Positions 507 to 33,131 of a stretch of 59,795 nucleotides of DNA are shown here, piece after piece. The position numbers and the translations under genes were made by a program. The stretch spans positions 1-59,795 of the IMG/VR virus record IMGVR_UViG_3300045135_002103; one strand, given 5' to 3'. This DNA comes from a virus. Its lineage: Duplodnaviria > Caudoviricetes. Under the pieces are notes generated by a model. The model was not told the DNA's origin. It made no database searches and saw only the letters and a list, made by a program, of their open reading frames with translations. How positions within the stretch are numbered: position 1 is the first letter of the stretch; each line of letters starts with the position of its first letter.

Positions 507-516
507 CACCCCCTTT

Positions 517-589
517 GGGTCAGTAGCATAATGGATAATGCCCCCGCCTTCTAAGCGGTAGATTGTAGGTTCGAGTCCTACCTGACCTG
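517..589 (+). tRNA. tRNA-Arg(UCU)
   Basis: Acceptor GGGTCAG/CTGACCT, anticodon loop CTTCTAA, T-loop GTTCGAGTC. Confidence 0.93.
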
Positions 590-606
590 TTACCTAAATA
601 TGTGGT

Positions 607-1107
607 ATGAAAATAGGATTTAACTGTAGTTCATTTGATTTATTTCATGCTGGGCATGTCACTATGCTTAAAATGGAAAAGGAAAAATGTGACTATTTAA
701 AAGTTGCTCTTCAGGTTGACCCAACTATTGATAGACCTGGAGTTAAAAATAAACCAACTCAAACTGTTTATGAAAGATTTGTTCAACTTCAAGGTTGTAA
801 GTATGTTGATGAAATTTTAGTATATGAGACTGAAGCAGATCTGCTAAATCTTATTAAGACTCAGACTATTCACATTAGGTTTTTGAGTGAAGAATATAAA
901 GATAAAGATTTCACTGGTAAGCAGTATTGCATTGATAATGGAATTGAATTATTCTTTCACTTGAGAAGGCATCAATACTCTTCAACTGAACTTCGCAATA
1001 GGGTTCATGATCTTGAAGAGATGAAAAGAAATGAGAAAGAACAGTCAAACGATGAGCAGTATTCTCCAAAACTTTTAGAAAAGTACAAACTTGACAATAA
1101 ACAATAA
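607..1107 (+). CDS. cytidylyltransferase (TagD/glycerol-3-phosphate cytidylyltransferase-like)
   Basis: FDLFHAGH (HxGH) and YSSTELR motifs; late-type CTAAATA upstream. Confidence 0.85.
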   Translation: MKIGFNCSSFDLFHAGHVTMLKMEKEKCDYLKVALQVDPTIDRPGVKNKPTQTVYERFVQLQGCKYVDEILVYETEADLLNLIKTQTIHIRFLSEEYKDKDFTGKQYCIDNGIELFFHLRRHQYSSTELRNRVHDLEEMKRNEKEQSNDEQYSPKLLEKYKLDNKQ

Positions 1108-1119
1108 ATCTATTATATT
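1091..1119 (+). promoter_or_regulatory. sigma70-type promoter
   Basis: TTGACA followed by TATTAT/TATATT upstream of a hairpin RNA and tRNA-Gly. Confidence 0.6.
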
Positions 1120-1126
1120 ATGATTT

Positions 1127-1172
1127 GGGCGTCGAGAGAGACCACCACCACCTCCTCTCTTGTGTAAGTCCC
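1127..1172 (+). ncRNA. putative small hairpin RNA with C-rich loop
   Basis: GGGC/GTCC and CGAGAGAG/CTCTCTTG stems enclosing ACCACCACCACCTC. Confidence 0.45.
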
Positions 1173-1177
1173 GCACT

Positions 1178-1249
1178 GCGGAGTTAGTTCAGCGGTAGAA
1201 CGCTATCCTTCCAAGTTAGATGTCGTCGGTTCGATTCCGATACTCCGCT
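1178..1249 (+). tRNA. tRNA-Gly(UCC)
   Basis: Acceptor GCGGAGT/ACTCCGC, anticodon loop CTTCCAA, GGTTCGATTCC. Confidence 0.93.
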
Positions 1250-1275
1250 TGTCCTTCGGGACACACAATAATTCA

Positions 1276-1347
1276 GGGTGAATGGCGCAGCGGTAGCGCA
1301 GTAGATTTACATTCTATTGGTCGGGGGTTCGAATCCCTCTTCACCCA
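1276..1347 (+). tRNA. tRNA-Val(UAC)
   Basis: Acceptor GGGTGAA/TTCACCC, anticodon loop TTTACAT, GGTTCGAATCC. Confidence 0.92.
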
Positions 1348-1370
1348 TTCCTTAAGGAGACCTATGACCC

Positions 1371-1619
1371 ATGATTATCGTCAGATGCAAAGACTGCAAC
1401 ACAGAGTTAAAAAGCAATAATAAAACACAAGTATGTGGTTGTCCAAACATGATGACAGTTACTGGAGACAAAGTAACAGCACTTGATTTAAATAGAGTTG
1501 TAATGATAAACTCTATGAAGAAAGAACAAAAAGAAAACGTTCTATCTAATAGTGACCTTGCATATCAAGAAGCAAGGAGACGGCGTAAAGTTCGTAAGTT
1601 GGACTTTGATGTCCGATAA
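1371..1619 (+). CDS. hypothetical zinc-ribbon protein
   Basis: CKDC...CGCPN; AAGGAG RBS upstream. Confidence 0.7.
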   Translation: MIIVRCKDCNTELKSNNKTQVCGCPNMMTVTGDKVTALDLNRVVMINSMKKEQKENVLSNSDLAYQEARRRRKVRKLDFDVR

Positions 1620-1624
1620 CACCT

Positions 1625-1711
1625 GGAGAGGTGGCAGAGCGGTTTAATGCATCAGTCTTGAAAACTGACGTGTCTTCACGGGCACCGTGGGTTCAAATCC
1701 CACCCTCTCCG
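1625..1711 (+). tRNA. tRNA-Ser(UGA)
   Basis: GGAGAGG/CCTCTCC acceptor, TCAGT-CTTGAAA-ACTGA anticodon arm, long variable arm. Confidence 0.94.
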
Positions 1712-1771
1712 TTTTATAAAGAAATACTTAAGAAGTATTGTGTCATCTATATACAAATATATGTAAAACTA

Positions 1772-1990
1772 ATGGTATTGTTTTATCTTATTATCCTGAC
1801 ATTTATTGCTTTAGTAGCATATGTCGGTTATGATGTAACCATGCGGTTAATAGCATATATTGATATTGTCATTAGACATAAAATAGTGCTACTTAAGTTG
1901 TGGTTTATGAGAATAAAATTAGAAGCACGTCTTGAGAAAGAATCTGCATACTACAAAAAACTCATAGAGGAAACCAAAAATGACCGATGA
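1772..1990 (+). CDS. hypothetical membrane protein
   Basis: Track ORF trimmed to the ATG after tRNA-Ser; N-terminal hydrophobic helix. Confidence 0.6.
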   Translation: MVLFYLIILTFIALVAYVGYDVTMRLIAYIDIVIRHKIVLLKLWFMRIKLEARLEKESAYYKKLIEETKNDR

Positions 1991-2267
1991 CAGAGAACTG
2001 TCTGATCTAAAACTAGATAGAAAAGAATGTGAAAAATGTGGTGCAATTTGGATCAACGGACAGCATATTTGGGGAGGAACTGGTAACACAAGTGAGAATA
2101 GTGAACTAGATCTTGCGGGTTTGGTTTGTAATAAACTTGGAAACCATCAATGCATAAACCCCAAAAAAGGACAAGATGGTGGACAGACTTGGGAATATAG
2201 ATCGGGATATATTGAAGGCAAGATTGATGAGCGTAAAAAAATATTAAAAGAAATGAACGACCTCTGA
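1980..2267 (+). CDS. hypothetical Cys-rich protein
   Basis: CEKC...LVCN...CINP; overlaps the previous stop. Confidence 0.7.
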   Translation: MTDDRELSDLKLDRKECEKCGAIWINGQHIWGGTGNTSENSELDLAGLVCNKLGNHQCINPKKGQDGGQTWEYRSGYIEGKIDERKKILKEMNDL

Positions 2268-2282
2268 TAGGGACAAGAACCT

Positions 2283-2399
2283 ATGGACAAAGACGAAAAG
2301 AGGGAGTTTTATAAACAACTCCGAGAACGAATAAAGCAACTTAGAATGCAACATTTGTTTGAAGAACCCTGTCCATTATATGAAGAAGATGAAGAATGA
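2283..2399 (+). CDS. hypothetical 38-aa protein
   Basis: MDKDEKREFYKQLRERIKQLRMQHLFEEPCPLYEEDEE*, ATGA-coupled to the next ORF. Confidence 0.5.
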   Translation: MDKDEKREFYKQLRERIKQLRMQHLFEEPCPLYEEDEE

Positions 2400-2605
2400 A
2401 ATCTTTAATTCTTATTGCTTGTTTATCACCAATTGCAATCATATGGATTGTAATGAAGTTAAGTGTATTGCTGTTCTCAGCAAACGATGAACGAAAGTAT
2501 GTCAGAGCAGAATCCAAAAAACCACACGGACCTTATGTGGCAGACGCATATGCAGATGTTGACGAAGAGGAAGAGGAGTATGGAGATCGCACAGATTATC
2601 GATGA
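2396..2605 (+). CDS. hypothetical membrane protein
   Basis: Track ORF; N-terminal TM segment and acidic tail. Confidence 0.6.
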   Translation: MKSLILIACLSPIAIIWIVMKLSVLLFSANDERKYVRAESKKPHGPYVADAYADVDEEEEEYGDRTDYR

Positions 2606-2726
2606 ATCATTATTCAGATATTATTCTGACTTGGAAAAACCTGTTCCTCAATGGAGAAAAAACAAAGATCCAGATTGGTGGATTGAATATCTAGAAGATC
2701 TTGGAATTGATAGGAGAAACCCATGA
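2580..2726 (+). CDS. hypothetical protein
   Basis: 3' part of track ORF 2463..2726, starting after GAGGAG. Confidence 0.5.
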   Translation: MEIAQIIDESLFRYYSDLEKPVPQWRKNKDPDWWIEYLEDLGIDRRNP

Positions 2727-2805
2727 CTTTATTGTTTTTATTTGCTTTTATTTCGTTGCTTATTGCTGGAATGCAACTAACATGGCCAGGTCGATATAGA
2801 GGATA

Positions 2806-2964
2806 ATGCATCATATTCAACTGTTCGTTAGGTCTGTAATGCAAACCCCTTGGTGCCTTGGACTCATGGGTTTTTTTCTTGTGTTTGTTCCTATCATTGG
2901 TATGCATTTAATTCATAAGTATGGATGGGAACACTGGGAACCATTTGACAAGAAACACAAGTAG
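2806..2964 (+). CDS. small membrane protein
   Basis: MHHIQLFVRSVMQTPWCLGLMGFFLVFVPIIGMHLIHKYGWEHWEPFDKKHK*, coupled by TAATG to a 27-aa hydrophobic ORF at 2723..2806. Confidence 0.5.
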   Translation: MHHIQLFVRSVMQTPWCLGLMGFFLVFVPIIGMHLIHKYGWEHWEPFDKKHK

Positions 2965-2977
2965 TGTTATATTATAT

Positions 2978-3050
2978 GGGTGGTTGAGAGACCACTGCGG
3001 TAGTTCCCTTCGGTAGGTTCAGAACTAGCGGCGATAGGAACCTATCACCA
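2978..3050 (+). ncRNA. putative pseudoknotted small RNA
   Basis: Follows a TTGACA-N17-TATATT promoter; GTGGT/ACCAC hairpin, then TAGTTC/GAACTA crossed by GGTAGGTTC/GAACCTATC; ends in ACCA. Confidence 0.55.
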
Positions 3051-3056
3051 TTTTAA

Positions 3057-3087
3057 AGGTTCAAACCTCATAAATAGGTTTGAACCT
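3057..3087 (+). promoter_or_regulatory. late promoter inside a 12-bp hairpin upstream of the HNH gene
   Basis: AGGTTCAAACCT-CATAAAT-AGGTTTGAACCT perfect inverted repeat with the ATAAATA late motif in the loop. Confidence 0.7.
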
Positions 3088-3097
3088 ATTTGATATT

Positions 3098-3418
3098 ATG
3101 CCAGCAAAAAACCCAAAAGAATACGCATCCAAGCACTACCAAGAAAATAAATCTAAGTATGCTGCTGCTGGTAAGGCAGCACGACAGCGTGTTAAGGAAT
3201 GGTATAATGGAATTATGGAAGACCACTCTTGTGAAAAGTGTGGTGAATCCGATACTGTGGTGCTAGAATGGCATCATATCGACCCCTCAAAAAAAGACAT
3301 GTCAATTGCTGATATGCTCTCTCGCAGGGGTCGCAAAACTATCTTGGAAGAGATAGATAAATGTATGTGTTTGTGTGCTAATTGCCATAGACGTTTACAC
3401 CACGAACTCCGGATTTAG
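3098..3418 (+). CDS. HNH endonuclease (free-standing, probable homing endonuclease)
   Basis: CEKC...LEWHHID...LCANCHRRLH; stop lies inside the 5' end of tRNA-Pro. Confidence 0.85.
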   Translation: MPAKNPKEYASKHYQENKSKYAAAGKAARQRVKEWYNGIMEDHSCEKCGESDTVVLEWHHIDPSKKDMSIADMLSRRGRKTILEEIDKCMCLCANCHRRLHHELRI

Positions 3419-3482
3419 CGCAGTTTGGTAGCGCACTTCACTTGGGCTGAAGGGGTCGGGGGTTCAAATCCCTCAATCCGGA
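3409..3482 (+). tRNA. tRNA-Pro(UGG)
   Basis: CCGGATT/AATCCGG acceptor, CTTCA-CTTGGGC-TGAAG anticodon arm. Confidence 0.92.
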
Positions 3483-3502
3483 CTTACTAAATATCCGTAA
3501 CG

Positions 3503-3670
3503 ATGAAGATTTATTCTGTGGAACACTGGCAAGAGAACTGGGAAGAACTGATGGAAAGAGTTGAGAAGGGAGAACATATTGGGGTGACAAACGGAGAAAA
3601 TACTGCTATAATGATGCCTGCGGATGATGAACTCATACGCATGTATACAGACCACGAAGAAGGTTCTTAA
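3503..3670 (+). CDS. 55-aa protein, Phd/YefM antitoxin-like
   Basis: MKIYSVEHWQENWEELMERVEKGEHIGVTNGENTAIMMP pattern; CTAAATA late promoter upstream; below the ORF-track cutoff. Confidence 0.55.
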   Translation: MKIYSVEHWQENWEELMERVEKGEHIGVTNGENTAIMMPADDELIRMYTDHEEGS

Positions 3671-3745
3671 GGGACTGTCGCCTAATGGTTAAGGCCCACT
3701 GCTTATAACGGTGTGATCTGGGTTCAATCCCCAGCAGTCCTACCA
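3671..3745 (+). tRNA. tRNA-Ile(UAU) with encoded CCA
   Basis: GGGACTG/CAGTCCT acceptor, CACTG-CTTATAA-CGGTG anticodon arm, ACCA end. Confidence 0.9.
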
Positions 3746-3818
3746 GCAGGTTTAGCAATCTGGCGAATGCAGCAAACTCATAATTTGCCTAAGGTGAGTT
3801 CGATCCTCACAACCTGCA
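3746..3818 (+). tRNA. tRNA with CAU anticodon (elongator Met or Ile2)
   Basis: GCAGGTT/AACCTGC acceptor, GCAAA-CTCATAA-TTTGC; lacks the initiator GGG/CCC anticodon stem. Confidence 0.88.
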
Positions 3819-3870
3819 CTTGACGGTTCTCCGTCAAACCCTTATAATACTAAGGTCAACAAACAAGACA

Positions 3871-4086
3871 ATGACACTTACAGAAAAATTCAAGAAAGAC
3901 ATTCAAACCCTTCGTGGTGCAGCAAATGGTGAACTGTTCCTTGATGTAAAGAACCCGAAACTTTTCAAAAAGGTTCGACGCTATTATGAAAATGCTGGTG
4001 TTGTATTCTCTGGTGATCCTCTTGATGATTATGAAATCTTGATGGAGTATCTGTATAATGATCTTGAAACTGTTGAGGTTAGTTGA
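3871..4086 (+). CDS. conserved cyanophage hypothetical protein
   Basis: Track ORF trimmed to ATG; TTGACG-N17-TATAAT promoter at 3820-3848. Confidence 0.7.
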   Translation: MTLTEKFKKDIQTLRGAANGELFLDVKNPKLFKKVRRYYENAGVVFSGDPLDDYEILMEYLYNDLETVEVS

Positions 4087-4325
4087 TGAAAGTTCTTCTT
4101 GAACGTTTCCCCTATCGTTATGTTGAGTCTGGCACACTAGAAAATGGTATGCCAGACTATCGCATTCAGAAAGCAAATAGTTGGACTAAACGATACAGTG
4201 ACATGTATTTGCTTGACAACAAAATGCAACTTATGACTGCGATTGATGACTTTGAGTACACTAAATGGTTAGATCCTGAAGGTGTACCTTGTTACATCAA
4301 AGACTCGGTATCGTCTCAAAACTAG
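4083..4325 (+). CDS. conserved cyanophage hypothetical protein
   Basis: Track ORF coupled to the upstream stop. Confidence 0.7.
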   Translation: MMKVLLERFPYRYVESGTLENGMPDYRIQKANSWTKRYSDMYLLDNKMQLMTAIDDFEYTKWLDPEGVPCYIKDSVSSQN

Positions 4326-4345
4326 CCCTGGTCGGGATACCCCCT
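4301..4345 (+). ncRNA. manA-like RNA module A
   Basis: AGAC-TCGGTATC-GTCT hairpin + AAAAC + CCCTGGTCGGGA; parallels module B. Confidence 0.5.
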
Positions 4346-4358
4346 TATTTTAGATAGT

Positions 4359-4571
4359 ATGATTGAATTTGATGACATTGAACTCCTACAACTTAAGTTT
4401 TGTATGAGTGAAACTAAAAAAATGATGGCTCACCCCAGTGAGCATGAACGTCATGCATCTATTAGTAAAAAAGTAGATGATGAGATGGAACGACGTAAAC
4501 AAGCAACTGGAGCATATACACGCGAAGGTTTGTTGCGTCAACTTGAGGAAGACATCAAACGTCTTTCATAG
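4359..4571 (+). CDS. hypothetical protein
   Basis: Track ORF between RNA modules. Confidence 0.6.
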   Translation: MIEFDDIELLQLKFCMSETKKMMAHPSEHERHASISKKVDDEMERRKQATGAYTREGLLRQLEEDIKRLS

Positions 4572-4615
4572 TCACGGAAGGACTAAAACAGTACTGGTGG
4601 AGTCATAAAGACCCT
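4570..4615 (+). ncRNA. manA-like RNA module B
   Basis: AGTC-ACGGAAG-GACT hairpin + AAAAC + CTGGTGGAGTC...GAC. Confidence 0.5.
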
Positions 4616-4652
4616 CTTAAAACTAAATAAAAAAAGAGTTCAATTTTTAAAT

Positions 4653-4853
4653 ATGGCAACCAAAGGAACCGCAGCAAAATCAACAACTGGCGCTGCAATG
4701 TCAAAATATGATGTTGAAGTGGAAGGAAGACTTCAAAAACTCGAAGCAATTGCTCATGAAAAATGTGATGCTGGTGGTGGTGTAAGTCCAGAACTTGAAG
4801 CAAAAATTGAAGAGTTATACCAATGGTATCTTTCAGTAAAGGCAAGAGTTTGA
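4653..4853 (+). CDS. hypothetical protein
   Basis: Track ORF; CTAAATA late promoter at about 4623. Confidence 0.65.
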   Translation: MATKGTAAKSTTGAAMSKYDVEVEGRLQKLEAIAHEKCDAGGGVSPELEAKIEELYQWYLSVKARV

Positions 4854-4855
4854 AA

Positions 4856-4940
4856 AAAGTTTCTTGCTTCTTTCAAGAGCAAGTGGTGCGGATGGAGGAA
4901 ACTCCCGCCCTGTTTCTTACTTCAGGTTAAAGAGTAAGTA
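4856..4940 (+). ncRNA. manA/wcaG-like RNA module C (two pseudoknots)
   Basis: AAAG/CTTT with CTTGCT/AGCAAG, then UGGUG; GGAG-GAAA-CTCC; CCTG/CAGG with CTTACT/AGTAAG. Confidence 0.6.
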
Positions 4941-4957
4941 CTTAGATTATACTTTCT

Positions 4958-5503
4958 ATGTTCCAAGTTCCTTTTTATCGAACAAATATTTCTAGATGGA
5001 GTGATCACAAAAAAGAAGTGATGTCTAAACTCTATAAAAATCTTGATGGATACATTGAGAAGCATGAGTGTATGACCACTTTTTTTAGTGAAACGAAAGA
5101 TTTAGATCTTCATCTTGAATTATTCAAACCGTTTTTAGATTTTATTAAATCAGATCTTGATGAGTTGAGGAAAATTGAGAGTATGTCTGGGGGATGTCCT
5201 ATGCCAGATATTACTGATATATGGTATCAATCATATACAAAACATCAGTATCATCAACTTCATAATCATGGATCTATTGGATGGTCCGCTATTTTCTATG
5301 CTACTTTTGATAAAAAAGAACATAAAGCAACTAGATTCTACTGTCCTTTTCCTGATGTATCAGGACGAACGATTAGTCATGAACCAGATGTGGATGAAGG
5401 TACATTGATTGTCTTTCCCTCATATTTGCAACATGAGGTAAGATATTCATTGAGTGATAAAAAACGTGTTATCATTTCTTTTAATATGTCCCCATGGAAG
5501 TAG
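4958..5503 (+). CDS. putative 2OG-Fe(II) oxygenase
   Basis: HNH...FPSYLQHEV...RVIISFN, typical of cyanophage 2OG-Fe(II) oxygenases. Confidence 0.75.
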   Translation: MFQVPFYRTNISRWSDHKKEVMSKLYKNLDGYIEKHECMTTFFSETKDLDLHLELFKPFLDFIKSDLDELRKIESMSGGCPMPDITDIWYQSYTKHQYHQLHNHGSIGWSAIFYATFDKKEHKATRFYCPFPDVSGRTISHEPDVDEGTLIVFPSYLQHEVRYSLSDKKRVIISFNMSPWK

Positions 5504-5550
5504 TTTGTTTTCCTGTTTTCCAACTAAACTAAAACAGGTGGCGTGCATGA
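5501..5550 (+). ncRNA. wcaG-like RNA module D (pseudoknot + UGGCG)
   Basis: CCTGTTTT/AAAACAGG pairing followed by TGGCGTGCATG, upstream of an NDP-sugar epimerase. Confidence 0.55.
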
Positions 5551-5563
5551 AAAGACCTTATAG

Positions 5564-5598
5564 AGACCCTTGACACCAAGGGTCTTTTTTTGTATGAT
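5564..5598 (+). terminator. intrinsic terminator overlapping the sigma70 promoter of the sugar island
   Basis: AGACCCTT/AAGGGTCT + T-run; TTGACA(5570)-N17-TATGAT(5593). Confidence 0.7.
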
Positions 5599-5621
5599 AT
5601 ATAAGAAGAAAAAAATAAACT

Positions 5622-6665
5622 ATGTCTGAATATAGTAAGACAGCACTAGTTCTTGGTGCTGGTGGTTTCATTGGAAGCCATATGGTAAAACGTCTTCGTT
5701 CTGAGGGGTATTGGGTTCGTGGTGTTGATTTGAAGCACACTGAATTTGAAGTGTCTGAAGCAAATGAATTCATTACAGGAGATCTTCGTGATACAGATTT
5801 TGTTCGTCGATGCATTCGTTTTACTGGACATCTTGGCAATTTCTATCAGGATATTGTAGATAAGTTTGCAAAACCTTTTGATGAGATTTATCAGTTTGCT
5901 GCTGATATGGGCGGTGCAGGTTTTGTTTTCACTGGTGAGAACGATGCGGACATCATGCACAACTCTGTTCAAATTAATTTAAACGTTCTTGAAGAGCAAC
6001 GTAAGTTTAATGAAACTGTAGGAAATAAGACTAAGATTTTTTATTCTGGTTCTGCTTGCATGTATCCAGAGCATAATCAACTTGATCCTGATAACCCAGA
6101 TTGCCGTGAAGATTCAGCATATCCAGCAAACCCCGACTCTGAGTATGGATGGGAGAAACTTTTCAGTGAGCGACTCTACCTTGCATACAATCGGAACTAT
6201 GACATTTCTATTAGGATTGCTCGCTACCATAACATTTTTGGTCCTGAAGGAACCTGGAACGGTGGAAGAGAGAAAGCACCAGCTGCAATCTGCCGTAAAG
6301 TCGCCTATCTTCCTGAGACGGGTGGAGCAGTCGAGGTGTGGGGAGATGGCTTACAGACTCGTTCCTTCCTGTTCATTGACGAATGCATTGAAGCGACTCG
6401 ACGATTGATGGACTCTGAGTTCATTGGACCAGTAAACATTGGTTCGGAAGAAATGGTTACTATCAACGAACTTGTTGATACTGTATCAAAAGTGTCTGGA
6501 AAGACCGTACATAAAATTCATATTGATGGACCACTTGGTGTTCGTGGTCGCAATTCTAACAATGATCTTATCCGCGAAAAACTTGGATGGGATTACACTA
6601 TGACTCTCGAAGAGGGTATTCGTAAAACTTACAATTGGATTAATGATCAAATTAGTAATTCTTGA
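5622..6665 (+). CDS. NAD-dependent epimerase (GDP-mannose 3,5-epimerase-like)
   Basis: GAGGFIG, AADMGGAGF, YGWEK, GREKAPAAICRK, GVRGRNS. Confidence 0.9.
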   Translation: MSEYSKTALVLGAGGFIGSHMVKRLRSEGYWVRGVDLKHTEFEVSEANEFITGDLRDTDFVRRCIRFTGHLGNFYQDIVDKFAKPFDEIYQFAADMGGAGFVFTGENDADIMHNSVQINLNVLEEQRKFNETVGNKTKIFYSGSACMYPEHNQLDPDNPDCREDSAYPANPDSEYGWEKLFSERLYLAYNRNYDISIRIARYHNIFGPEGTWNGGREKAPAAICRKVAYLPETGGAVEVWGDGLQTRSFLFIDECIEATRRLMDSEFIGPVNIGSEEMVTINELVDTVSKVSGKTVHKIHIDGPLGVRGRNSNNDLIREKLGWDYTMTLEEGIRKTYNWINDQISNS

Positions 6666-7179
6666 TGTTGATGGCGTCATGACTGACGGTAAGAAGTATT
6701 ATGATCGTGACGGTAACGTTGTGATGAAAAACTTCTGCGATAAAGACTGGACTGCTATTAAACGTTTTCGTGCCATTGGTATTCCTGTTGTATTTTTGAC
6801 TGGAGATCCTTTCAATGCAACTATCCTAAAGAACAGGAATCTTCCATATGTTGTCAATAGAGGTGAGGGTTTTCACCGCGATAAAGTGAACTTCCTTGAT
6901 GATATTCTGAAAGAATATCAATGTGATGCTAAAGAAACTGTTTATGTTGGTGATGACCTTTTTGATATGGGAGTCATGAAAAAGATTAAGCATGTATATT
7001 GTCCCAGAGATACTCCTAGGTCAGTTCGGGAAATATCAAAAGTATTATCTGCAGAAGCTGGAAAGAACGTTATAATGCATTTGTTCGATACTCTTGAACT
7101 GCATGGTCTAATTCCTTTTGTGCCATATGAAGAAGTAATGGAAAAGATTTATGAACTTGACTTGAAGGAGAAGTTTTAA
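6643..7179 (+). CDS. HAD phosphatase, KdsC (KDO8P phosphatase)-like
   Basis: LDVDGVMTDG and YVGDDLFD motifs. Confidence 0.8.
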   Translation: MIKLVILDVDGVMTDGKKYYDRDGNVVMKNFCDKDWTAIKRFRAIGIPVVFLTGDPFNATILKNRNLPYVVNRGEGFHRDKVNFLDDILKEYQCDAKETVYVGDDLFDMGVMKKIKHVYCPRDTPRSVREISKVLSAEAGKNVIMHLFDTLELHGLIPFVPYEEVMEKIYELDLKEKF

Positions 7180-7850
7180 TGAAAGACATTTCACTCTATG
7201 GGCATTTGACAATTGATACTATTCTTGATGGTGATAGAGAACGTAAAACTCTAGGTTCAATTGCAAATGTTTGGAAAGCATTACTTGAAGTTGACCCTAC
7301 ATTAGATATTGGGTTGTCTCCTATTGATGTTGGTCAAGCACTTATATATGTTGATAAACCTGCTGCTCAGAGGTATTCAAAGGTAAACCTAAGTCTTGTT
7401 CAACATCAAGCAAAAATCATTGACTCAACTATTCACCATCTTGTATATCTAAATGAGATGACTCGTCATGATTTTATTCCTGCACTGGATGGCATTATCA
7501 CCGCTGATATTTGTCCTGGTAAGTCTGTCAACAAAGACCTTTTGAGTTATGTTGACTATCTTTTCATTTCAGATGAGGACATTGATGAAGACTTGTCAGA
7601 ATATACAAATGCCACAAAGGGATGGGTTATTCTTCACAGTTCTTCTGGCAGTATTGTTTCCAATGGAGACCAAGAGTTTTTCTATAAGTTGCCAGAGGAA
7701 TTGATGCTCAAGAATGTAAATGTTCTTGGTGCTGGAGATATATTCGCCTCTTGTTTCTTATATAAATTATTGAAGAATGAAGGAGATATCCATAATTGGA
7801 TTGAATTTGCTCATTTGAATACGACTGAAATTATTAGGAATTCTATATGA
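7179..7850 (+). CDS. PfkB/ribokinase-family sugar kinase
   Basis: C-terminal NVLGAGDIF signature. Confidence 0.7.
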   Translation: MKDISLYGHLTIDTILDGDRERKTLGSIANVWKALLEVDPTLDIGLSPIDVGQALIYVDKPAAQRYSKVNLSLVQHQAKIIDSTIHHLVYLNEMTRHDFIPALDGIITADICPGKSVNKDLLSYVDYLFISDEDIDEDLSEYTNATKGWVILHSSSGSIVSNGDQEFFYKLPEELMLKNVNVLGAGDIFASCFLYKLLKNEGDIHNWIEFAHLNTTEIIRNSI

Positions 7851-9004
7851 AACCAAATATCCTTGTCCCTATGGCAGGACTTGGGAGCCGCTTTATCAAA
7901 GAAGGTTTTAAAGTTCCCAAGCAATTAATTAATATCAAAGATAAGCATCTAATTGATATCTCTCTAGACTGTTTGGACTATGAAGGATGTAATCTTATTT
8001 TTGTAGTTCGTGATGAGACTGTCTATAATTACCACATGGATGATCTCTTGCGAAAGAAATTTGGAGATGATATCAAAGTAGTTGTTCTTGATAAACTAAC
8101 CGATGGATCTGTCTGCAGTTGCCTCTACGCTGAAGAGTATATTGATAATGACGCTCCTCTTATTATTCATACTCTGGATATTGAGTTTAGACCCGTTTTT
8201 AATCCTCACATTATGAATGACTTGGATGGTGATGGACTTCTCCTCACATTCAAGTCAAACTCTGCAAACTACAGTTATGCAAAGGTAAATGAAAATGGTT
8301 TTGTGACTGAGACTGCTGAAAAGAAAGCAATTAGTAATGATGCTTGTGTAGGCATCTATGGTTTTAAGAAAGGTTCTGACTTCTGCAAGTATGCCAGAGA
8401 GATGATTGAACGTGACTTGAGAACTAAAAATGAGTTCTACATTTCACCTTTGTATAATCTTCTCATTGAAGATGGTAAAAAGATCCGCACTGAACCTGTG
8501 GATAAGATGCACGTCTTTGGAACACCTGATGAGTTCCACTTCTACAAAGACAATGTGACTCGTCGCTTGGGTGATAAACCCATTGCTGTCTGCTCTGACC
8601 ACTCTGGGTTTGAAGCAAAAGAAACCTTTAAGAAAGTGTTGGAAGACAATGGGTATGAGTATATTGACTTTGGAACTATTCTGAATAAAGACTGTGACTA
8701 CAGAGACTATATTTCTCAGGCAGTTAAGTCTATCAATGAAAGAGACTGTGACTATGGGTTTGGGTTCTGCCGCACAGGTCAAGGAGTGAATATTTGTGCT
8801 AACAAGTATAAAGGCATTCGCTCTGCATTGATCTATGATACATTCTCAATGCAGATGGCAATACGTCACAACTGTGCAAACTTCTTTGCTATTCCCTCCA
8901 GGGGAGTGGACTATGAAACACTAGATAGGTATCTTTATCTCTGTGCAAATCATACATTTGATGGTGGTCGCCATCAGATTCGTATTCAGGAGTTGGAGAA
9001 GTGA
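7847..9004 (+). CDS. sugar nucleotidyltransferase fused to ribose-5-phosphate isomerase B (RpiB)
   Basis: N-term PMAGLGSRF...PK; C-term SDHSG, DFG, CRTGQG, ANKYKGIR, HNCAN, FDGGRH. Confidence 0.85.
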   Translation: MKPNILVPMAGLGSRFIKEGFKVPKQLINIKDKHLIDISLDCLDYEGCNLIFVVRDETVYNYHMDDLLRKKFGDDIKVVVLDKLTDGSVCSCLYAEEYIDNDAPLIIHTLDIEFRPVFNPHIMNDLDGDGLLLTFKSNSANYSYAKVNENGFVTETAEKKAISNDACVGIYGFKKGSDFCKYAREMIERDLRTKNEFYISPLYNLLIEDGKKIRTEPVDKMHVFGTPDEFHFYKDNVTRRLGDKPIAVCSDHSGFEAKETFKKVLEDNGYEYIDFGTILNKDCDYRDYISQAVKSINERDCDYGFGFCRTGQGVNICANKYKGIRSALIYDTFSMQMAIRHNCANFFAIPSRGVDYETLDRYLYLCANHTFDGGRHQIRIQELEK

Positions 9005-11149: not shown

Positions 11150-12166
11150 ATGAAAACGGTATTCGCAAAAGCACCTCTCAGACTTGCCCTTGCGGGGGGA
11201 GGAACTGATTTATTTCCATATTGGAAACACTATGGAGGTATTGTTCTGAATGGGACTATTGACCAGTATGCTTATTGCAAAATTGAACCTAGTGATAAAT
11301 GGATATTTAAAAGTGTAGATCTTGAAAGAGAAGAGACGTTTGATAATGTAGAAGATATAATGTCCAAAACAACACTCAAGTTGTTGGTGTCAACATATCA
11401 ATATCTTACTAATGACTGTGAGAAAACTCCTGTTAAAATAACGACTTTTGTTGAAGCTCCACCGGGAAGTGGATTGGGTAGTTCTAGTGCTCTAGTTGTT
11501 TCTCTTATTGCTGCTATATCGGAATATTATAGTATACCTCTTGGTGAATATGATATAGCAGATATGGCAGTTGATATTGAAAGAAATATTTGTGACTTAC
11601 CTGGAGGAAAGCAAGATCAATTTGCTGCTGCTTTTGGTGGTTTCAACTTTATTGAATTTTTGCCTGATGGTAGAACAATAGTAAACCCTTTACGGTTAAA
11701 CTTTAAGACTCAAAATATGCTTGAGTTGAGTACAGTTTTGTACTATGTTGGTAAACCAAGGATGGATGAAAGAGTTATTGAGAATACATCACAAAACCTT
11801 CTCAACAACGATAAAGGAACTCTGCAGGCAACACATAGAATTAAATCTGCTGCCATAGAATATAAAAGAAGTCTTCTTTTAGGTGATGTGGATAAAATTT
11901 GTGAAACTATGAATACCTACTGGAAAAACAAAATTCAGACTAACGAAAAGGTCGTATCTCCAGAGTTGCTAGATAGTTACGAATTTGCTATGAAAAATGG
12001 AGCAAAGGCTGCTAAGATATCTGGTGCTGGTGGTGGCGGACATATGATTCTTTTTACTGATTTTGAAAAAAGGCATCAACTTATTAGTGCCCTTAAAAAA
12101 AGAAAAGTAGGAAGAGTTGTTCCTTTTAAATTTGTTAAGCATGGAGTTGATGTGTGGCGGGTATAG
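11150..12166 (+). CDS. hddA: GHMP kinase, D-glycero-D-manno-heptose 7-phosphate kinase (HddA-like)
   Basis: APLRLALAGGGTD, PPGSGLGSSS, GKQDQ, ISGAGGGG. Confidence 0.85.
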   Translation: MKTVFAKAPLRLALAGGGTDLFPYWKHYGGIVLNGTIDQYAYCKIEPSDKWIFKSVDLEREETFDNVEDIMSKTTLKLLVSTYQYLTNDCEKTPVKITTFVEAPPGSGLGSSSALVVSLIAAISEYYSIPLGEYDIADMAVDIERNICDLPGGKQDQFAAAFGGFNFIEFLPDGRTIVNPLRLNFKTQNMLELSTVLYYVGKPRMDERVIENTSQNLLNNDKGTLQATHRIKSAAIEYKRSLLLGDVDKICETMNTYWKNKIQTNEKVVSPELLDSYEFAMKNGAKAAKISGAGGGGHMILFTDFEKRHQLISALKKRKVGRVVPFKFVKHGVDVWRV

Positions 12167-32983: not shown

Positions 32984-33024
32984 AGTCAACGGCTCAAGAA
33001 CGTTAAGTTCTGTAAAGTTGTAAC

Positions 33025-33131
33025 ACACCCCTTAAACCGAGACCTCTAGGGTGTCTAAAGCACGTCTCTCATATCCTGTCTAAGGGTGACAGGAAATAGT
33101 AACTCCACCATTTCCCTGATGGTCTTACTTT
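33025..33131 (+). ncRNA. PhotoRC-II-like RNA in the psbA 5' UTR
   Basis: GAGAC/GTCTC, TCCTGTC/GACAGGA, AGTAA..ACCAT/ATGGT..TTACT stems directly upstream of a phage psbA. Confidence 0.75.

Follow-up and report, generated by a model that had tools for sequence, protein, structure and literature searches.

A wcaG RNA array with small genes inserted between its units in a T4-like cyanomyovirus

The window analysed here is a 59,795-nucleotide (nt) stretch of viral DNA (IMG/VR record IMGVR_UViG_3300045135_002103) from a T4-like cyanomyovirus, and the element under study is an array of four structured modules, A to D, lying within positions 4301-5549 in the hyperplastic tRNA region of that genome. 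The array includes the wcaG RNA, an orphan riboswitch candidate since 2010. We consider it fairly probable that the locus is one modular, cis-transcribed RNA platform, an extended form of wcaG, with units that fold by themselves and linkers that accept gene cassettes by recombination. We observed that the units are homologous to one another and contiguous in relatives, that covariation is local, that insertions are polymorphic, that chimeric units occur and that the element is restricted to one locus. A first-pass annotation of the window had described four structured blocks, separated by open reading frames (ORFs) and each beginning at the stop of the preceding ORF, as a manA/wcaG-like RNA. 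The ORF ends at 4325, 4571, 4853 and 5503 confirm this layout, the same modules lie end to end in relatives, and the annotation's overall interpretation is partly supported.

Module C is a complete match to the Rfam wcaG model by itself. It contains the three helices of that RNA and the UGGUGCGGA strand after the first of them, with two non-standard pairs in the second helix (P2). The GUGGCG tail that directly follows the third helix (P3) of wcaG RNAs is missing from this position, where P3 runs into UACUU; the conserved tail of C is displaced 600 nt downstream to 5539-5549, behind hairpin D. A permissive scan of 4200-5700 returned D (5470-5552) as a sub-threshold wcaG match (24.5 bits, E 0.055), aligned as the 3' hairpin plus the conserved tail. 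The setting is likewise that of wcaG, a motif of marine or cyanophage DNA in the vicinity of exopolysaccharide or high-light genes: the relatives are cyanomyoviruses and an epimerase gene lies at 5622-6665. Judged by sequence, block C is thus a wcaG member with one defining feature displaced. Because C is complete on its own, only the third insertion truly cuts the described wcaG model. The three pseudoknot stems named by the annotation in C and D are all present, with their pairing upheld in relatives, and two of the three pseudoknots are followed by UGGYG as claimed (UGGUG after the first, UGGCG after the third; the second, in P3, precedes UACUU). The double family label fared less evenly: the wcaG half stands, with 78.9 bits for block C, and the manA half does not, as the manA model (RF01745) had no match at E≤10 in 4200-5700 and none at its gathering score across the window.

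Comparing module order and cargo across cyanophages, a check that the annotation had itself proposed, bore out the split: the modules are joined in relatives and the cargo ORFs differ. Phage records matching 4080-5700 numbered 377, none reaching 80% coverage of the stretch; the closest named relatives are Synechococcus phages Bellamy, SynMITS9220M01, S-SM2 and S-T4. A wcaG match of 86-94 bits was found in 8 of 11 fetched phage records. In Bellamy, S-SM2 and SynMITS9220M01, A runs directly into B; a homolog of the 66-amino-acid (aa) ORF of the window and then wcaG follow. A B-like unit abuts wcaG in S-RS29. In S-RSM4, S-H9-1, S-H9-2 and S-RIM32, an A-like unit abuts wcaG and two more units follow, the last nearly identical to D of the window. 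S-T4 (L004 2520-2620) and Sf-CH8 (L005 1770-1860) have just one unit, a pseudoknot plus UGGCGAGCCUG, ahead of the terminator and epimerase gene; the Rfam wcaG model did not detect this unit at E≤1. The usual order in most relatives is A, B, wcaG core and terminal UGGCG unit, and the contiguous form is one RNA of ~250 nt ending in a terminator that overlaps a promoter.

A scan of IMG/VR with the B motif gave at least 120 loci, in which the A-B junction is contiguous in 68 and split in 4, with no A within 1200 nt in 46 and a contig-end cut in 2. The junction between B and the wcaG core is contiguous in 36 and split in 32; the core motif was not found in 43 and the contig was cut in 9. Among the B-motif loci listed, the core-tail junction is contiguous in 67 of 67 and split in none. 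A second scan, with the core motif, gave at least 103 new loci with 106 sites, 51 of them true and 55 chance matches in unrelated viruses; among the matches listed, the tail is adjacent at 39 of the true sites and an E-type tail at 8, with 2 cut by the contig end and 2 lacking a tail. These array-type frequencies are descriptive only. No second example of the core/tail split of the window was present among about 120 other arrays listed, and the window, with three cargo ORFs, is the most fragmented array seen. In one IMG/VR contig, L231, the 14-nt core motif recurs in four exact copies at spacings of 75, 402 and 468 nt. No copy passed the wcaG context filter; they may be a repeat in an unrelated virus.

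The third insertion can be traced in a near-isogenic contig, L027, which is 97-98% identical to window 4196-4939 and 5530-9000. L027 shares insertions 1 and 2 and lacks the 600-nt oxygenase cassette; its third helix is continuous with the tail, and its wcaG match scores 95.4 bits versus 78.9 in the window. The third helices of the two differ by one compensatory pair of changes. In the window, D takes the place of the third helix beside the tail. All 32 IMG/VR loci with a D-type hairpin are four-unit arrays of the S-RIM32 kind in which this hairpin is the final unit; in 31 of them the same spacer comes before it. Because D always ends another array type elsewhere, the cassette would have brought D from that array type. 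Metagenome contigs of at least 85% likeness bridge both cassette junctions and the A-ORF-B-ORF stretch, and others show the uninserted join; these contigs come from relatives and possibly also from the source sample, and show only that inserted and uninserted forms both exist.

Insertion 1 separates A and B, which in relatives lie 42-57 nt apart, and its ORF (4359-4571) borrows its stop codon from the 5' arm of the B hairpin. The 70-aa ORF family occurs at 14 IMG/VR loci in three kinds of context: in the A-B linker (as in the window; L027 and three other contigs), upstream of A (three loci) and far from any unit (seven); the phages collection held no match to it. In L047 and L086 the same linker carries a different gene, a cupin ORF of ~113 aa whose stop codon also lies within the B hairpin; its PWGW start suggests that it may be mannose-6-phosphate-isomerase-like. 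Among the matches listed, 31 of the 32 loci with a split between B and wcaG hold homologs of the 66-aa ORF of insertion 2, and the other holds a 153-aa ORF. The ORF of insertion 3 (4958-5503) encodes a 2OG-Fe(II) oxygenase (PF13759, E 4e-13; phrog_81, E 1.8e-34). Homologs with 36-37% identity stand directly after the last unit in L019 and L253. A donor search found no close relatives in viral_contigs, and the phages collection gave matches of ≤37% identity only, of which those located lie elsewhere in their genomes; the S-RSM4 match is at ~151.5 kilobases (kb) and its array at ~30 kb. Read from the sequences, the ORFs sit in linkers only, and the linker sites are constant while the cargo differs. 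Oxygenase genes of this class with an MF.VP or MF.IP start recur beside wcaG arrays (L019, L253 and L195); in L195 it comes after the third unit, and the contig goes no further.

Modules A and B represent a unit of their own, type I, defined here as a hairpin of 4-6 base pairs (bp) with a 7-8-nt loop, an A-rich linker and CUGGUS; both modules fit this definition. Both share the motif that the annotation had noticed (hairpin, AAAAC, CTGGT). The pattern AAAC-N2-6-CTGGTSGR occurs twice in the 59.8-kb window (4319 and 4586) versus 0.12 expected, and none of 100 shuffles reached two. A type-I covariance model, R1, scored B at 47.0 bits (4564-4602) and A at 38.1 bits (4295-4336), with the next-best window site at 8.5 bits. 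Strong R1 matches number two each in Bellamy and S-SM2 and one each in S-T4, S-RSM4 and S-RIM32, and every off-locus match in the window and these five complete genomes scores ≤15.7 bits. No Rfam family covered A or B at E≤10 in window 4200-5700 or at E≤0.1 in seven loci. The B unit is present in at least 120 IMG/VR contigs. We considered a genome-wide punctuation element and rejected it, as strong R1 matches fall at a single locus in the window and the five phage genomes; GUGGYG-like matches at 12033, 12154 and 13712 fall in coding sequence. Type-I units therefore appear to be a single-locus RNA and not a general intergenic signal, and the annotation's suggestion of a general gene-cassette array of repeated 3'-end units is not supported, given this one-locus restriction.

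Units of different kinds have been joined to one another in relatives. In S-T4 and several IMG/VR contigs, CUGGU is the point at which an A-type hairpin and linker meets a B tail; a type-I hairpin is fused to the wcaG strand or tail in L146, L153 and L165, and some arrays run B-A. The B strand CTGGTGG (4594-4600, in all B units) has seven of the eight letters of the E. coli Chi site. Crossovers in the chimeric units fall at CTGGT; the Chi likeness is probably a coincidence, the host being a cyanobacterium.

The structure of these units was assessed by covariation. Across 109 distinct units, pairing in the type-I hairpin reaches 97.2% and 41 cells have changed on both sides; its covariation score of 0.323 compares with 0.072 for shuffled alignments (none of 500 shuffles was as high) and ≤0.092 when the helix is slid. 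In an unfiltered count, the hairpin is found at 82 of 146 CUGGUS sites near a wcaG core versus 104 of 1222 control sites elsewhere. An alignment of contiguous arrays, comprising 19 of 23 distinct ones, shows covariation in P1, P3 and the terminator stem; pairing is 100% in the P3 pseudoknot, where three pairs have changed on both sides (19 sequences), and 77% in the P1 pseudoknot. For the D-type pseudoknot, pairing is 94.2% across 13 sequences and two pairs have changed on both sides; the window keeps three of its four pairs. Only the + strand tolerates G-U pairs, consistent with an RNA transcribed in the same sense as the genes. By eye, kissing between type-I loops and the loops of the GC hairpins showed no consistent covariation across units.

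All covarying helices are local to one module, which bears directly on the annotation's idea of a large RNA folding across the inserted genes. In such a model, the four blocks are joined by long-range pairing into one aptamer-like fold; it would account for the contiguity and fixed unit order in most relatives, and RNAalifold does propose a helix between A and B (GGUC/GACC). That helix, the sole one between modules, shows no covariation, its columns being fixed by the selection of loci. B also occurs without A within 1200 nt at 46 of the at least 120 loci, the number and order of units are not constant, and translation of the intervening ORFs is probable. We regard a single large RNA as very unlikely, and folding across the genes is not needed to explain the locus. 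A chance resemblance among ordinary intergenic hairpins would fit the unremarkable folding energies of the modules; the Rfam score, together with conservation across more than 100 contigs, already refutes it, motif statistics and covariation also speak against it, and its probability is practically negligible.

The same data speak to a DNA-level account, in which the blocks are recombination cassettes like the PeSLs of T4-like phages and do nothing as RNA. In its favour, the blocks are where indels and chimeras fall, the array finishes with a PeSL-like element, and shuffling mediated by PeSLs is documented in T4-like phages (PMC2839356, PMC4122927). Against it, helices and pseudoknots are preserved by compensatory changes, with G-U pairs on one strand only; moreover, the units lie at one locus and are not dispersed through hyperplastic regions, and the Rfam family is conserved across many cyanophages. 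This account seems to us very improbable indeed.

The array ends in the only element with folding support, a terminator with a folding z-score of -4.77 and a stem that covaries in relatives. By strict criteria, 67 of 104 distinct downstream contexts have a terminator within 75 nt of the tail and 51 have the terminator plus both promoter boxes; several of the remaining contexts fail through one mismatch only. Three arrangements follow the tail in the 19 arrays and 104 contexts: a terminator bearing a -35 box and then a -10 box, a hairpin and then tRNA-Gly, or an ORF directly. Such an ending underlies the main rival to the modular platform, namely that the array is a cis-regulator of the terminator whose terminal unit, riboswitch-like or put/EAR-like, tunes read-through into sugar-modification genes, the upstream units being accessory; ORFs between units would be allowed since such elements act co-transcriptionally on the polymerase. 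The terminal unit (a pseudoknot plus UGGCGWGCMUG) always lies 8-30 nt before the terminator hairpin. It is still beside the terminator in the window despite the insertion, the terminator is close to the tail in the 67 contexts just given, and the one unit retained by S-T4 and Sf-CH8 is of this kind, directly before the terminator and epimerase gene. The wcaG RNA was also rated a probable cis-regulator and riboswitch candidate when described (Weinberg 2010, PMC2864571). On the other side, no conserved alternative pairing of the tail with the terminator or a ribosome-binding site was seen in the 19-array alignment, and the tail is invariant while terminator stems covary freely. The promoter within the terminator can express the downstream gene regardless, and arrays of other phages run into tRNA-Gly or an ORF directly. 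We judge terminator control to be rather unlikely.

According to the modular-platform reading, the array would be the untranslated portion of an early-type operon that is read on the + strand, and would end at the terminator overlapping the next promoter, the whole stretch forming one transcript. Each unit would be a small hairpin or H-type pseudoknot with a variable stem, followed by a G-rich strand that does not vary (CUGGUS or UGGYG) and, in many cases, a short GC hairpin. The few-nucleotide linkers would tolerate foreign DNA because each unit folds by itself, and the units, because they resemble one another, would supply short homology patches to phage recombination; recombination between units would then be the mechanism of insertion. 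Small expressed ORF cassettes would be gained, lost and exchanged exactly at the linkers, and the oxygenase cassette would have entered recently, bringing its own terminal hairpin from a different array type. The autonomy of the units would explain why insertions are confined to linkers, and their mutual similarity the chimeras and the exchange of cargo. Because unit number and order vary and 200-600 nt are tolerated between units, repeated independent sites fit better than a single ligand pocket. The units would act additively and independently as repeated binding or recognition sites, the last one beside the terminator, and not as a compact ligand pocket.

Several points weigh against the modular platform. 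Folded as single sequences, A, B, C and D have energies that do not beat those of shuffles (z = +0.26, -0.25, -0.99 and -0.70); being insignificant, these energies were rejected as evidence of structure for the four modules, which leaves covariation to carry it. Type-I stems are only 4 bp long, and the rows of the type-I alignment were preselected for the hairpin (110 of 135 kept, 25 dropped, one further chance match removed). That the G-rich strands do not vary is in part built in, since these motifs served to select the loci and rows; the Rfam wcaG consensus independently shows these strands conserved. The direction of gain and loss comes from parsimony without a rooted tree, and presence and absence of the 66-aa ORF are about equal among the loci listed (32 and 36). 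Some joint action of the units is also suggested by their near-constant order, A-B-core-tail. Runs labelled as RNA, in which 0.04-0.11 of words matched, consist of assembled Logan contigs. The one run recorded as RNA (X2) has a 167-nt contig over the wcaG core (4875-4939) at a depth of 101.6 versus 2-25 for the other contigs listed; because its flanks do not match those of the window, this contig must stem from a relative, and it shows neither transcription of this phage nor RNA ends.

Compared with wcaG RNA as described (RF01761; PMC2864571), module C matches the full model and shares the setting, a T4-like cyanophage with an NDP-sugar epimerase gene downstream of the RNA. The 98 nt described as the motif are here the middle of a longer chain, with two undescribed units upstream, further units downstream in some phages and, in the window, the 3' tail 600 nt off behind an inserted gene. 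The RNAcop paper (PMC4787817) reports conserved pairs between wcaG and its 3' flank. In their accessible text, Weinberg 2010 and the S-CREM1, S-SCSM1 and RNAcop papers describe no upstream units, extra downstream units or inserted genes, and their supplements may record more flanking conservation. The analysis adds the chain itself, with units that vary in number and order and recombine, and the genes naturally inserted between units; an insertion that parts the third helix from its conserved tail occurs in the phage of the window alone. The insertions are natural dissection experiments that argue against a compact ligand pocket and favour autonomous repeated units, and they indicate which junctions may be cut in constructs.

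The cargo exchange has a parallel in PeSLs. In T4-like coliphages and vibriophages, recombination between repeated PeSL cassettes shuffles small ORFs (Arbiol 2010, PMC2839356; Comeau 2014, PMC4122927). The array of the window is likewise closed by a terminator stem-loop with a sigma-70-like -35 box, 17 nt and a -10 box (5562-5598), and here too the region is hyperplastic and the small-ORF indels that distinguish close relatives adjoin conserved elements that are repeated. PeSL pairs flank the exchanged ORFs in the known systems, whereas a single PeSL-like element is present in 3800-6000 and the repeats flanking the cargo are structured RNA units, not promoter-terminator cassettes. The window and L027, with and without the 2OG-Fe(II) oxygenase cassette, provide a clean, datable case of auxiliary-gene gain in a cyanophage, in which structured RNA units take the role that PeSLs have in coliphages.

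Other known systems also bear comparison. The manA RNA is also an orphan cyanophage RNA, sometimes near wcaG (S-CREM1 Table 4, PMC9964418), and self-assembles into cages in vitro according to a 2026 preprint. It differs in having no match at this locus. We know of nothing comparable to the manA cages for wcaG. The CsrB and RsmZ decoy RNAs consist of a variable number of similar small hairpins with G-rich motifs and a terminator at the end; the array resembles them in each of these respects and in its many A-N-G-G-A type-I loops, and differs in that GGG, GGU and CGA loops occur too. A CsrA-type decoy was rejected, the five cyanophage genomes having no CsrA gene. The UGGN sequence of T-box RNAs pairs with the 3' NCCA end of tRNA, and UGGYG of the array is complementary to CRCCA; the array also sits within or next to clusters of phage tRNA genes. 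Neither a specifier element nor an antiterminator architecture was found in the array, for which no dedicated T-box test was made. Like integron attC cassettes, the locus has small promoterless ORFs between repeated structured sites in one expressed array; unlike them, its repeats are one-strand RNA-type units at one locus with at most three cargo genes, and no integrase was identified near the array in a scan limited to the ORFs in 3080-7179. A bolder proposal is that wcaG-type arrays are multivalent RNA platforms in phage tRNA operons and not metabolite riboswitches: each unit would expose a single-stranded UGGYG or CUGGU that pairs with CRCCA tRNA 3' ends, like UGGN in T-boxes, or binds a host or phage protein, unit number would set the dose, and the units would double as recombination joints that capture small gene cassettes and express them. 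We think this quite unlikely; if true, the locus would be an RNA-delimited, integron-like hot spot in cyanophage genomes.

The coordinates of the array and its surroundings are collected in Table 1.

Table 1. Features of the wcaG array and neighbouring genes in the window.
Feature	Positions	Strand	Details
Sigma-70-like promoter	3820-3848	+	TTGACG, 17 nt, TATAAT, 11/12; directly 3' of tRNA-Met
ORF, 80 aa, cyanophage-conserved	4083-4325	+	phrog_481, E 8e-45; labelled T4-GC 250 in S-SM2 and S-T4
Module A, type-I unit	4301-4344	+	hairpin 4301-4316 (8-nt loop), A-rich linker, CUGGUC 4328-4333, short GC hairpin to 4344
Insertion 1	4345-4568	+	224 nt in A-B linker; carries ORF 4359-4571 (70 aa)
Module B, type-I unit	4569-4616	+	hairpin 4569-4585, linker, CUGGUG 4594-4599, bulged hairpin to 4616
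Insertion 2	4617-4854	+	in B-wcaG linker; carries ORF 4653-4853 (66 aa, phrog_35121)
Module C, Rfam wcaG RNA (RF01761)	4855-4952	+	model positions 1-98; 78.9 bits vs gathering score 42
Module C, P1	4863-4883		pseudoknot 4856-4859/4870-4873; UGGUG 4884-4888; then P2
Module C, P3	4916-4938		pseudoknot 4909-4912/4923-4926
Insertion 3	4940-5539	+	600 nt, junction ambiguous by 2 nt; leader, ORF 4958-5503 (181 aa), D hairpin
Module D	5504-5549	+	pseudoknotted hairpin, stem 5512-5519/5531-5538, then UGGCGUGCAUG 5539-5549
Intrinsic terminator with overlapping promoter, PeSL-like	5562-5598	+	hairpin 5562-5587, T run; -35 5570-5575 within hairpin, -10 5593-5598
NAD-dependent sugar epimerase/dehydratase ('wcaG' gene, namesake of the RNA)	5622-6665	+	PF01370, E 6e-37

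Seven tRNA genes (516-3819) lie upstream of the array, and the putative promoter directly behind the last entry of that cluster is the likely start of the array-carrying transcription unit. Between this promoter and the terminator hairpin, all four ORFs (4083-4325, 4359-4571, 4653-4853 and 4958-5503) are on the + strand. The first hairpin and linker of module A (4301-4325) coincide with the last eight codons and stop of the ORF that precedes it, and in relatives the C-terminus of homologs of this ORF changes along with the hairpin variant. In L024, a tRNA abuts unit A. Upstream of the promoter, ORF 3080-3418 gave a weak HNH endonuclease match (20.5 bits versus a cut-off of 21.4), and its 3' end lies inside the start of tRNA-Pro (3409-3483). 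Elsewhere in the window, a full-length PhotoRC-II RNA (RF01717, 74.3 bits) is present at 33013-33107.

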